Shown: positions 37,023-39,137, counted from the stretch's first letter. The stretch is 64,000 nt of DNA from Escherichia coli (GCF_003018235.1 NZ_CP027437.1), one strand, 5' to 3'. Made by a program: numbers and translations. The notes: generated from the sequence alone by a model not told the origin.

Positions 37023-38100
37023 ATGATTTTCACCGAACGATGGCGACATAACGATTGTATTTTCTAAGGAAACGTGCAAAGAGTTTTCCAATGATGAGCC
37101 TTATATGCATACCTGTGGAAAATATCAATAAGCCGCGCAGAGTGGTTTTTTTGTGGACATAAACTTTGTGCAGAACGGTAACCATTATGGTTGCCGTGAA
37201 TGCAGTTTTTTTACATTGCTGGCTTTTTTAGATTTGTGTTAGTTATTGATATTAACAAGAAGGGGAAAAGACATGCTAAAACGGCAGGATATGAAGGAAA
37301 CGGTTATGCGTGAATGTTCCAGTGTGATTAACCATATCATCTGGAGAAGCCATCCTGATGCAGGGAAGAGGTAACAGTAACGCGCATCAATCAGGCTGCA
37401 AATAAATGGCTTACGCCGGAAATCTGGCTATCGATGTATTACCGGTTTGTTACCCATGAAGAAAATTAAGGTGATAACGAAACTGATTTTATAGGTGTCT
37501 TGTCAGAGTGTTGCGATGAAACTTGTGTTGGCAGTGCAGGGAAAACAGTAGGATGAAAATTATAAATTGCTTTAAATGAGCTTGATTTTCCTCATGTTAT
37601 GAGATATTTGTCTTATATTGCTGGTTAATTATGAAAATTTTTGTAAATCTACAGCAATAAAATCCATATTAATTAAAGCACTAGATGCGTTTCTGATTTG
37701 TGCATGAAACATACATATCATAATGATTAATTGCATCTATAATTACAGATACAGCATTGTGCTATTAAAAAACTGGAGTCCCCATGAATACATTATATGT
37801 AAGTGATTCAAATGAAAAATCTCATGACAGGAATAAAAACAATGAGGATAGTAAGGGTAAGGATAATAAAAAAGACAACCGGAAAGAGTAAATAATCTTT
37901 CCTGCATGAAAATACTAGGGTGGAATATGTCAGAACATCCAGATTTTGATGACCGTAAGCCTGATGATGAGCCCGTTGAGCGTCCTGATGAGGGGCAACC
38001 ATTGAACCCTTTTTCACCGGATGATAAAAGAGATCCTATTATTTAGATATAGCAGAATATAGCCGTTTAAAGTAGGTTGTGTTTTGTTGCTATCCTTAAA

Positions 38101-38126
38101 CCACCTCCACAGGAGGTGGTTTTTTA
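38101..38126 (+). terminator. Rho-independent terminator
   Basis: ccacctcc-acag-ggaggtgg followed by tttttt; downstream of two tandem small plus-strand ORFs (37785.., 37927..). Confidence 0.7.
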
Positions 38127-38182
38127 CTAATGGAACATTAATTGGCAGATGTGATTGTGTACGACTTATGGGAGGCTTAAGA

Positions 38183-38368
38183 TTATTTTCTGCCAATAAT
38201 AAAACCAAGCGTTAACCCTATGCTTAGAGCAACCACCACGCTAGTCAGTGGATAATTTCTAAATTTATCTTTAACGTTTTCTTTGCCTCCCTGCAAAGCA
38301 TCGTCAGCACATGATGCATATTTTTTGACAGTATTAACTATTTCGTTTTCAGATTGATTTGAAGTCAT
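38183..38368 (-). CDS. Small C-tail-anchored membrane protein (ElaB/YqjD-like C-terminus)
   Basis: 61 aa MTSNQSENEIVNTVKKYASCADDALQGGKENVKDKFRNYPLTSVVVALSIGLTLGFIIGRK; hydrophilic N-part plus single C-terminal TM ending in basic residues. Confidence 0.45.
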   Translation of the reverse strand: MTSNQSENEIVNTVKKYASCADDALQGGKENVKDKFRNYPLTSVVVALSIGLTLGFIIGRK

Positions 38369-38823
38369 GTTTGAAGTCCTGATGTTAAGTGGTTTTTTAA
38401 TTATAGCAGATATGCTTTCAATGATAGGGCGGAGAGTTGTTATTGAGGTGATACTATGACCACTCAATCAATATTACATAAAATGACGTTTACTCCTGTT
38501 TGGCACAGTAGCAGAATTTTGCTTCTGCTACTGAAGTCGCTTTAGCACTAGAATATGCAGATGGATAAAGCAGTTCAGCGTATGTACTGCGTCATGCATA
38601 TCGGTCTTGCAGATATGACGAGAAGGGGAGACAAGGTGTGTGTAATGTAGAAGTCTTTAAAGTGCTGTCTGGGATAACTCTATGCTGAAGTGCAATTGAT
38701 AAAAGTAACACGATAAAGGTTTTTCAATGAAGATGGTAACGTGATGCTTGCATTTTTCAAAAAATATGGATAAAATTTTTTCAAAGATGGGCTTTGTATA
38801 CCCGACGTTAAGAAAAAGTAGAA

Positions 38824-38848
38824 AACCCGCTGATGAGCGGGTTTTGTG
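38824..38848. terminator. Hairpin with flanking T/A tracts, possible bidirectional terminator downstream of cspF
   Basis: aacccgc-tgatga-gcgggtt with T-rich sequence on both strands. Confidence 0.4.
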
Positions 38849-39137
38849 CTTTAAATGGGGCAATGGTAATGTTGAATCTCATCCCGGGACTCATGTCTGT
38901 TAACTTATTATTTAGCTGGTGACTTGGTTATTTGCCTGATGTTTAAAATGTTTTCTTCCAGTACAATGTCCCTAAACACAATGAGTCTGCTTATTATATT
39001 ATTAGCAGAGCTATTACGGCCAAAGTACAGCATAAGCTTTTAAAGCCAATCAACCAGTCATCAAGACAGACGGGGTTATTCATAAAAACTCTCCATGTGT
39101 GATCCGATGGGGCCTGAAATTAAAGCTTTAATATAGC

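Follow-up and report, generated by a model that had tools for sequence, protein, structure and literature searches.

A putative recombination joint between Q and cspF in a Qin-like prophage, with a conserved cassette of small open reading frames upstream of the late promoter

Lambdoid morons are promoter-gene-terminator units, examples being lambda bor/lom and the morons of HK97 and HK022. The locus analysed here, positions 37023-39137 of a 64-kb stretch of Escherichia coli DNA (NZ_CP027437.1; this whole stretch is referred to as the window), lies between the Q antiterminator gene and cspF in the late region of a Qin-like lambdoid prophage and contains a core of ~0.85 kb that resembles such morons. 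This cassette, made up of the three small open reading frames (ORFs) A, B, and C, is absent from collinear relatives, has a lower GC content (34.2% versus 49.5% for the window), its own terminator and promoter-like elements, and is found at varied positions. It differs from the described morons in that it comprises three predicted microproteins in two convergent units (A-B and C) and not one gene, in that it is located upstream of the late promoter pR' and not within the late operon, and in that pseudogene debris flanks it. The interval as a whole had been described in a first-pass annotation as a single AT-rich island of 2.1 kb; it is indeed AT-rich (36.9% GC, with Q at 46.2%), but only 37064-38658 is extra relative to the Qin prophage of K-12, and the interval, rather than being a single island, appears to be a joint left by recombination in a lambdoid (pro)phage of the Qin type. 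The element belongs to a known kind; its individual genes are new.

The right-hand part of the interval is closest to the lambda pR'/qut/6S RNA/tR' system. The module at 38748-38852 has the same layout, including a -10-like, sigma-dependent pause element of the AACGAT type at the start of the transcript followed by GGG, a terminator, and a Q protein of the lambda family, and should, like the modules giving lambda 6S RNA and StxS of Stx phages, produce a short terminated RNA in the lysogen (PMC7547250). In contrast to lambda, the module stands 1.7 kb from Q, with a decayed duplicate of the Q tail ahead of it, and a second, apparently dead module follows Q. The small-protein genes of Qin (ynfS, ynfU, ynfN, ymcF, ynfR, cspB/F/I, and gnsB) resemble the cassette in prophage type, neighborhood, and tiny size, with ynfN and gnsB homologues adjoining C homologues in other lineages; A, B, and C, however, match none of these families and are absent from K-12.

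The closest described relatives of ORF C are the stress-induced ribosome-hibernation paralogues YqjD, ElaB, and YgaM (DUF883). Members of the YqjD family are C-tail-anchored, with a conserved Pro before a Gly-rich transmembrane (TM) helix through which they dimerize, and their N-terminus blocks the ribosomal tunnel, the N-terminal domain of YqjD being required for ribosome inactivation (bioRxiv 10.1101/2024.08.16.608256). ElaB is described as regulated by RpoS (PMC6389858). The ORF C product shares with these proteins the stretch from the pre-Pro helix through a Gly-containing TM helix to a terminal RK/RR, its predicted fold is likewise a helix, a kink, and a TM helix, and its promoter resembles sigmaS-dependent ones. 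It differs in length (61 versus ~100 amino acids (aa)), in having neither the DUF883 N-terminal domain nor a Trp after the Pro, in being without yqjE/yqjK neighbors, and in being phage-borne.

The best explanation of the locus, to which we assign a probability of roughly 0.6, is a recombination joint together with a stress-expressed moron that has its own promoters and lies upstream of pR'. On this explanation a 1.6-kb segment (37064-38658) would sit between Q and the real late promoter, and its left side would have brought in a second, SfV-type copy of the Q tail, pR', and tR'. After the join the two copies would have undergone complementary decay, such that the left copy kept the coding end of Q and lost the -10 element, the qut spacer, and most of the tR' stem, and the right copy lost the coding end of Q and kept pR', the pause element, and tR'. 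A-B would be read from a CTATAAT promoter, with a transcript opening on a conserved inverted repeat, and ORF C from a TGCTATAATTAA promoter of sigmaS type. The C protein would enter the inner membrane by its C-terminal Gly-zipper helix, as do YqjD, ElaB, and YgaM, and the cassette would be a module of lysogenic conversion that influences the physiology of membrane or ribosome stress; C would work by way of its tail anchor, dimerizing, possibly with host paralogues, and A and B would serve as disordered cofactors.

Two late-promoter modules and the borders of the insert

The features that define the joint are as follows.

36270-37022, plus strand: Q antiterminator gene (ydfT/quuQ type, lambda-Q family; Pfam Antiterm PF03589, E 5e-50), the left border gene
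37055-37100, plus strand: decayed SfV-type pR'/qut relic (TTGTAT, 17 nt, AAAGAG, 6 nt, AATGATGAG)
37130-37148, plus strand: weakened hairpin, located where an SfV-type module has tR' (folding free energy (dG) -8.5 kcal/mol, z -1.1; 24 of 200 shuffles as good)
37170-37212, plus strand: intact intrinsic terminator (hairpin 37170-37203 plus U7; dG -19.4, z -4.6; 0 of 200 shuffles as good)
38659-38716, plus strand: decayed duplicate of the Q 3' end, in the right-hand copy of a 73-nt direct repeat (from the post-Q alignment)
38748-38792, plus strand: functional-type pR' with qut (-35 TTGCAT at 38748-38753, 17-nt spacer, -10 TAAAAT at 38771-38776)
38815-38852, both strands: tR' hairpin (plus strand dG -23.9, z -6.9; minus strand dG -15.1, z -5.8)
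38994-39083, minus strand: ynfS, a known 29-aa small protein of K-12 (Pfam YnfS PF23697, E 5e-23), part of the Qin backbone and outside the insert

BLAST comparison with a K-12-type Qin reference (locus L002) revealed that window 34223-37063 aligns to K-12 259-3098 with 93.1% identity and window 38659-42000 to K-12 3001-6342 with 98.95% identity, leaving 1,595 bp (37064-38658) without a K-12 Qin counterpart. A 98-bp section of K-12 (3001-3098), comprising the last 58 nt of Q and the following 40 nt, is matched twice in the window, and a direct repeat of 73 nt (36965-37037 and 38659-38731) is present with 77% identity between its copies. The gap between Q and cspF in K-12 is only 421 bp and contains a hairpin and ynfS, which is annotated as WP_120795389.1 in K-12-like and CH4811 genomes. 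Comparison with K-12 Qin had been suggested in the first-pass annotation, and collinearity holds for the right-hand ~480 bp only (38659-39137), which are Qin backbone with ~99% identity to K-12, ynfS included. Among 5,426 complete E. coli genomes, 39 carry the full 2.1-kb arrangement, O121:H19, O103, and O84:H7 strains being among them, and it is likewise present in two sequenced phages, PhiR63_1 and HannyBb. The former is one of a set of temperate, lambda-related phages that have served in plaque assays, and a functioning lytic cycle is therefore compatible with this layout. At five shared positions (38785, 37764, 37908, 38393, and 38472) the window departs from CH4811, PhiR63_1, and HannyBb.

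An alignment of the regions following Q in SfV, phage Ayreon, K-12 Qin, and both window copies, compared with the actual lambda sequence, defined a conserved module consisting of a -35 TTGCAT, a 17-nt spacer TTTTCAAAAAATATGGA, a -10 TAA(A/G)AT, 6 nt, and AACGATGGG, with an intrinsic terminator ~40 nt further on. Lambda pR' itself reads TTGACT-17-TAAATT-6-AACGATGGG, and qut is partly located between the -35 and -10 elements (PMC6266700). The Q protein encoded in the window is 97% identical to SfV Q, 92% to K-12 QuuQ, and 41% to lambda Q, and has an extra DnaJ-like CxxC insertion.

In the right copy, the 44-nt core is the same as in K-12 Qin, CH4811, PhiR63_1, and HannyBb except for position 38785, with SfV and Ayreon differing at 2-3 positions. 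The change at 38785 (C>A) turns the pause element AACGAT into AAAGAT (38783-38788, followed by GGG), so that the window has AAAGATGGG at 38783-38791, where CH4811, PhiR63_1, HannyBb, K-12, SfV, Ayreon, and lambda all have AACGATGGG. The hairpin beyond it, listed in the first-pass annotation as a second terminator-like structure, was recovered with an inner stem at 38822-38845 and an outer stem at 38815-38852 (z -6.9); it is kept in K-12 Qin, SfV, and Ayreon, in the last two as an annotated terminator, and corresponds to tR'. On the minus strand the same hairpin also sits past cspF-ynfS. It is predicted that tR' would end a short pR' transcript of ~70 nt, as compared with 194 nt for lambda 6S RNA.

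The left copy aligns in register with SfV, Ayreon, K-12 Qin, and the right copy, but 14 of its 44 positions differ, among them positions 1 and 6 of the -10 element, which reads AAAGAG, and 9 of the 17 spacer (qut) bases; a pR'-type promoter with -35 and -10 elements and 17-nt spacer was not recognized at 37055-37083. The Q tail beside this copy is nearly identical to that of SfV, the weakened hairpin at 37130-37148 aligns to the annotated SfV terminator, and the intact terminator at 37170-37212, which would insulate the insert from Q read-through, has its homologue in the SfV DNA that follows tR'. For the Q 3' end the situation is reversed: the left copy, in which it forms part of the ORF, retains it intact, and in the right copy it has decayed.

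Late transcription most likely starts at ~38783, as in K-12 Qin, which would place the insert between Q and pR' and outside the Q-dependent late operon. The first-pass annotation had noted that the late promoter and qut site would be expected after Q, yet that the lysis genes begin 3.5 kb downstream; the holin does start 3.5 kb past the Q stop codon. If late transcription begins at the intact pR' (38748-38776), no such gap remains, as the distance from pR' to the holin start (~1.76 kb) equals that in K-12. In annotating phages of this Qin-like group, one may place the late promoter at 38748-38792, 1.7 kb from Q and with a dead duplicate after Q. The locus would offer an example of complementary decay after a mosaic join and a caution for automated pR'/qut calls, and for Stx-type late-gene predictions, that assume that pR' abuts Q.

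From left to right the insert contains the pR'/tR' relic, the terminator at 37170-37212, an orf47-like ORF, ren, the AT-rich core (~37600-38415), a rha fragment, and the Q tail. The gene fragments on either side of the core are:

37273-37374, plus strand: truncated orf47-like ORF of 33 aa, of which only the first 11 aa match SfV orf47
37380-37563, plus strand: ren pseudogene fragment (39% identity to DLP12 Ren by tblastn; carries a deletion and is interrupted by an in-frame stop)
38444-38638, plus strand: 5' fragment of a rha/antirepressor-type pseudogene (~79% DNA identity to genes for 'Rha protein' or with a P22AR C-terminal domain)

The orf47-like ORF begins with MLKRQDMKETV as compared with MLKQQDMTETA in SfV (tblastn), and the DNA of this region is ~75% identical to the regions following Q in SfV, mEp460, and Stx2c phages. 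The DLP12 Ren query was derived from the ren pseudogene annotated in K-12; by blastn the ren fragment (37423-37563) has ~73% DNA identity to lambda-type ren genes. The rha fragment matches with 43% identity and two in-frame stops (tblastn). The orf47-like ORF, the ren and rha fragments, and the decayed Q tail are debris from other lambdoid genomes. The earlier idea of an acquired moron is retained for the ~0.85-kb core and does not apply to the remainder, which consists of the dead pR' copy, pseudogene fragments, and Qin backbone.

The A-B and C units and their lineages

The core contains two units that face each other across a shared terminator.

37600-37783, plus strand: putative A-B regulatory region, where conservation of non-coding sequence between cassette types 1 and 2 is highest
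37784-37891, plus strand: ORF A, a 35-aa hydrophilic microprotein rich in Lys, Asp, and Asn (isoelectric point (pI) 8.1, grand average of hydropathy (GRAVY) -2.5)
37927-38046, plus strand: ORF B, a 39-aa acidic, Pro-rich microprotein (pI 4.1)
38098-38126, both strands: strong hairpin terminator on which A-B and C converge and which they share (U6 on the plus strand, only U3 on the minus strand)
38183-38368, minus strand: ORF C, a 61-aa tail-anchored protein (mini-DUF883_C; PHROG 11629, E 5e-47; RefSeq WP_000203370.1)
38397-38410, minus strand: predicted ORF C promoter (TCTGCTATAATTAA; TG-extended -10 with C at -13, sigmaS-type)

The features listed in the first-pass annotation were all present, with positions agreeing to within 1 nt. 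ORF A, given there as a 36-mer at 37785, exists but has 35 residues and starts at 37784; the 39-mer at 37927 (ORF B) is exactly as quoted, the minus-strand 61-aa tail-anchored protein is found at 38183-38368, and the first terminator was recovered as a hairpin at 38098-38122 followed by a U-run, with none of 200 shuffles folding as well (dG -18.2 kcal/mol, z -3.8 on the plus strand; -17.8 and -3.6 on the minus strand). The largest ORF in the interval, 94 aa, is a TTG-started extension of ORF C.

Related cassettes were collected from the contigs of HMMER matches and from scans of viral and genome collections, and fall into three lineages. Type 1 comprises the window, CH4811, PhiR63_1, HannyBb, and four IMG/VR contigs. 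Type 2 comprises 11 loci, one of them from Enterobacter wuhouensis, in which A-B faces C across a terminator with 35-55% protein identity to type 1; these cassettes are carried by Enterobacter-type lambdoid phages at a genome position different from that in the window, which in the locus examined in detail (L012) is between the lysis genes and Nu1, adjoining a GnsAB-family gene. No megablast match to the type-2 cassette was found in E. coli genomes or GenBank phages. Lineage 3, from Silvania hatchlandensis and metagenomic contigs (L010, L011, L018-L023, and L032), has C without A or B, and at most of its loci C is paired with a divergent ORF of 62-68 aa bearing the motif NEWEDEGGA.

Between types 1 and 2 BLASTN detected ORF B only, and a MAFFT alignment was therefore used to set the cassette borders (~37600 to 38415). 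In this alignment the start codons, the Shine-Dalgarno sequences (SDs), the A-B CTATAAT, the inverted repeat ACAGCA-N3-TGCTGT, and the C -10 region TGCTAT(A/G)ATTAA all correspond. Variable sites within type 2 amount to 4/126 in A, 2/138 in B, and 13/249 in C, as compared with 69/423 in the spacers (Fisher p = 3e-11), counts which, being taken from related sequences, measure constraint and not independent events. Each ORF differs from the spacers with p < 1e-4 (for A, p = 4e-5 against spacer values of 14-22%), and eight of the 13 variable sites in C are third codon positions. A, B, and C are conserved as one mobile unit under constraint.

In the A-B unit, the predicted -10 CTATAAT (hexamer at 37738-37743) has a C at -13, and the SD of ORF A (GGAG) is at 37775-37778. 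At the predicted 5' end of the transcript is the inverted repeat ACAGCA-TTG-TGCTAT (37751-37765), which occurs once in the window, with 0.04 occurrences expected by chance; it is perfect (ACAGCA-TTG-TGCTGT) in the three other type-1 copies, and the palindrome is broken in the window by the change at 37764 (G>A). Type-2 copies do not vary at any of the 37 nt preceding the ATG of ORF A. The type-2 homologue of ORF A retains the ATG and SD, shows an in-frame length difference of 18 nt, and has a pI of 9.9; ORF A is probably protein-coding. ORF B is 55% identical to its type-2 homologue, from which it differs by an in-frame 18-nt indel, with the motifs MS..PDFDD, EGQP, and PDDKRD kept. Within type 2 the ORF B protein is 100% conserved, both variable sites being third codon positions, and its SD is a strong AAGGAG; by this pattern ORF B is very probably protein-coding.

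Both A and B are extremely hydrophilic, and neither has a family match in Pfam, NCBIfam, PHROGs, or PADLOC. Word-indexed protein searches with B and C returned near-identical E. coli entries only, and searches for further copies did not find ORF B outside the cassette. The C-terminal tip of SSB is DFDDDIPF, and PDFDD in ORF B was considered as a mimic of it; this was rejected, the motif being N-terminal and without the terminal IPF. A separate change in the window, A>G at 37908, makes a spurious upstream ATG for ORF B.

The predicted promoter of ORF C has counterparts at the same distance to the ATG in type 2 (TCTGCTATGATTAA) and lineage 3 (CTTACTATACTTAA). As GCTATAATTAA it fits 10 of the 11 positions of the sigmaS-type extended -10 consensus KCTAYRCTTAA (PMC5650638), the lineage-3 version being CTATACTTAA, and the relaxed motif KCTAYRMTTAA occurs three times in the 64 kb against 0.47 expected. 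Both cassette promoters have a C at -13 and a poor -35, and their extended -10 elements are conserved in all lineages; the poor -35 elements are the reason that a sigma70 consensus scan missed them. We infer that, in a lysogen, the cassette would be driven by its own promoters, chiefly in stationary phase or under stress, as is known of the host paralogues.

Consensus promoter-like sites in the interval (nine, with 10.3 +/- 3.3 expected by chance) and terminator-like sites (four, with 1.9 +/- 1.5 expected) were not above chance, and significance is drawn from individual hairpins and from conservation across lineages, not from site counts. A tRNA scan of the window found none, and the sole match in a scan of the interval with Rfam 15 (E <= 1) was a chance match to a snoRNA model (24 bits, E 0.79). 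The first-pass annotation had suggested small stress proteins or small RNAs. The former remains plausible for ORF C, which has the sigmaS-type extended -10 in three lineages and a DUF883_C match; for small RNAs no evidence was found, as Rfam gave no match and the conservation pattern of B and C is that of coding sequence.

The ORF with the NEWEDEGGA motif is acidic (QEEWxxSINEWEDEGGA) and was located at L012 4939-5136, L010 307-495, L023 2570-2776, L033 1328-1522, L020 3590-3775, and L032 ~2676-2780, in each case on the minus strand. Its place in type 2 is upstream of A-B, and in most lineage-3 loci it is divergent from C; it has no Pfam or NCBIfam family match, and it was looked for in the window and is absent there. 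Other neighbors of C in lineage 3 are a universal stress protein gene (L023 3494-3979; Pfam Usp, E 5e-24) and, recognized by eye, genes for a YmgE/YeaQ-like small membrane protein and a GnsAB-like protein (L032 1431-1679 and 3891-4064).

ORF C and the DUF883 anchor

PHROG 11629, which ORF C matches, is a family of unknown function. An AlphaFold2 model of the protein (pLDDT 66) has helices at residues 4-38 and 40-60 with a break at Pro40, corresponding to a cytosolic helix, the Pro, and a hydrophobic, Gly-containing TM helix ending in RK. Among nine family members Pro40, Gly55, Gly59, and Arg60 are invariant, and homologues are found at 36-57% identity in three other lineages. An exhaustive HMMER search with C returned short homologues at 36-50% identity; only four of the eight matches are short proteins, one of these being the near-identical E. 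coli cluster. The top-scoring match, a protein of 3,151 aa with 26 matching stretches, and two further long multi-stretch matches were set aside as unlikely to be true relatives.

Profile comparison (hhalign) of C with ElaB/YqjD/YgaM gave a probability of 96.7% (E 3.4e-10), covering ElaB residues 58-100 only. All nine family members match DUF883_C below threshold, the best with E 3e-6, and no Pfam match to the DUF883 N-terminal domain was obtained for C, in which only 39 residues precede the Pro. ORF C is very probably protein-coding, and its product is filed as a DUF883_C-like variant, as judged from profile matches, and not as a member with the activity of the family. A literature search found no paper linking DUF883 to prophages.

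A similar anchor was observed on the chromosome of Enterobacter sp. MGH 24 (L034 2884-3156), where a 90-aa protein fuses a CsbD-like stress domain (Pfam E 1.5e-10) to a C-type anchor. This protein shares the Pro and the Gly-zipper tail anchor with ORF C, and its gene adjoins a queH-looking gene; queH is also annotated inside the CH4811 copy of the prophage.

Competing explanations and neighboring features

Several points weigh against the explanation as a joint with a stress-expressed moron. The C family is very rare, with eight matches among 1.84 billion representatives in the exhaustive HMMER search and an occurrence in three of 100,044 species representatives, and comparative power is limited to two or three lineages. 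Window C scores 12.3 bits against Pfam DUF883_C (PF19029), which has a gathering threshold of 27, and as C is without the ribosome-inactivating N-terminus, a YqjD-like activity cannot be assumed. The sigma70 consensus scan called neither of the predicted cassette promoters, whose assignment to sigmaS rests on the motif and its conservation, and the left pR' copy could keep weak activity. The SD of ORF B in the window is mediocre (GGGTGGA). ORF A is of low complexity, non-synonymous changes account for three of its four polymorphisms, and the strand opposite it is also open in both types (window 37743-37907, minus strand; L012 4559-4756, plus strand), as a result of which its coding status is the weakest of the three ORFs. 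The antisense frames, of 54 and 65 aa, are rich in Phe, Leu, Ser, and Tyr, lack a conserved start or SD, and are probably a by-product of the AAx/GAx codon composition.

An unlikely alternative is that the cassette is a conflict module, in which C would be a membrane toxin with A and B as protein or RNA antidotes, or which would act as a superinfection-exclusion or abortive-infection device against other phages. C is short and membrane-inserted, overproduced tail-anchored proteins of the YqjD type block translation, the cassette occupies prophage accessory slots adjoining hok/sok and genes of the GnsAB-toxin family, and the PhiR phage panel has been used in work on prophage-encoded defence. 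The convergent layout with its shared hairpin could also permit mutual interference, but there is no overlapping antisense unit, the stops of B and C being 137 nt apart across a spacer that is not conserved. A search of the interval for type I toxin-antitoxin and defence features gave no match in Rfam or PADLOC, whose models match neither A, B, nor C; the presence of C without A or B in lineage 3 misfits an obligate toxin-antidote pair, and the best homology of C is with stress-induced housekeeping paralogues. Homology also bears on whether the whole insert, A, B, and C included, might be inert debris with the small ORFs as chance frames in AT-rich DNA: C homologues at 36-57% identity, from four lineages, keep the invariant Pro, Gly, and Arg positions, the three ORFs, start sites included, occur together again in a lineage beyond the reach of BLASTN except for ORF B, length differences are in frame, and the ORFs are 3- to 10-fold less variable than the spacers. 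Such a reading is thus very unlikely, even though more than half of the insert is demonstrably debris (the dead pR', orf47-like, ren, and rha with stops), RefSeq annotates only ORF C and ynfS in the interval, ORF A is of low complexity with an open antisense frame, and the insert is rare. Should the cassette prove inert, the finding would be an ordinary prophage mosaic joint.

Two further alternatives concern single parts of the interval, and both are assigned a very low probability. The A-B unit might act as a non-coding regulatory RNA of ~350 nt running from the 5' hairpin to the terminator, given that the best-conserved block is the promoter and the 5' end with its inverted repeat, that the unit ends at a textbook terminator, that the substitutions in ORF A have no third-position bias, and that prophage late regions are known sources of small RNAs such as StxS and DicF (PMC7547250). 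Against this, Rfam gave no match, the inverted repeat of the window folds weakly (-3.5 kcal/mol, z +0.7) with no compensatory changes seen, the start codons and SDs of both ORFs are conserved, and ORF B shows synonymous polymorphism only, an in-frame 18-nt indel, and the AAGGAG SD of type 2. It is similarly improbable that the left copy at 37055-37100 is a working late promoter, which would put the whole 2.1 kb inside a Q-antiterminated late operon. It does occupy the canonical position, 33 nt past the Q stop, it retains in register TTGTAT, which resembles a -35, and the pause-like hexamer AATGAT, and hairpins follow, but its -10 AAAGAG fits only two of six consensus bases and lacks the final T, and nine of its 17 spacer bases differ from a spacer that is invariant in four phages whose Q proteins are 92-97% identical. 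Moreover, the right copy is fully intact save for 38785, which would be unexpected if it were redundant.

The explanation as a joint with a stress-expressed moron can be carried one step further, although we regard this step as speculative and itself quite unlikely to be correct. The mini-anchor protein C, together with disordered A (basic) and B (acidic), would be made from the sigmaS-type promoters in stationary lysogens and would pair with YqjD, ElaB, or YgaM so as to retune hibernation. As dimerization is needed for ribosome inactivation, pairing with C would blunt or retune ribosome hibernation. If this were true, such retuning might keep the ribosomes of the lysogen available for induction, C would stand as the first modulator of this hibernation pathway to be encoded by a phage, with A and B representing new microprotein families. 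With regard to the cassette itself, three predicted microproteins that are unannotated or labeled 'hypothetical' are conserved as a mobile unit across genera, one of them apparently a truncated relative of YqjD/ElaB/YgaM. The cassette is carried by the sequenced phages PhiR63_1 and HannyBb and by O121, O103, and O84 strains, some of which are labeled Shiga toxin-producing E. coli (STEC), and is directly testable.

The genes that provide the context to the right of the interval are:

39138-39350, minus strand: cspF
39651-39866, plus strand: cspB
40545-40835: holin, followed by ydfR, rrrQ, and rzpQ
42536-42748: cspI

Outside the interval, the sok antisense RNA is present at full length beside hokD (Rfam RF01794, 115 bits; region of window 34068-34242 and 34401-34482), and an isrK-like match below threshold (25.7 bits, gathering score 50) lies between hokD and rem. 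A Trp-leader-like Rfam match in the cspB-ynfU gap (40084-40173; 23.8 bits, E 0.3) is probably due to chance. Thermoregulator 5' untranslated regions of the cspA type (RF01766; 159 and 113 bits) were recognized at 39490-39913 over cspB and at 42390-42775 over cspI, from which it follows that the late operon runs through two cold-shock thermosensor genes.

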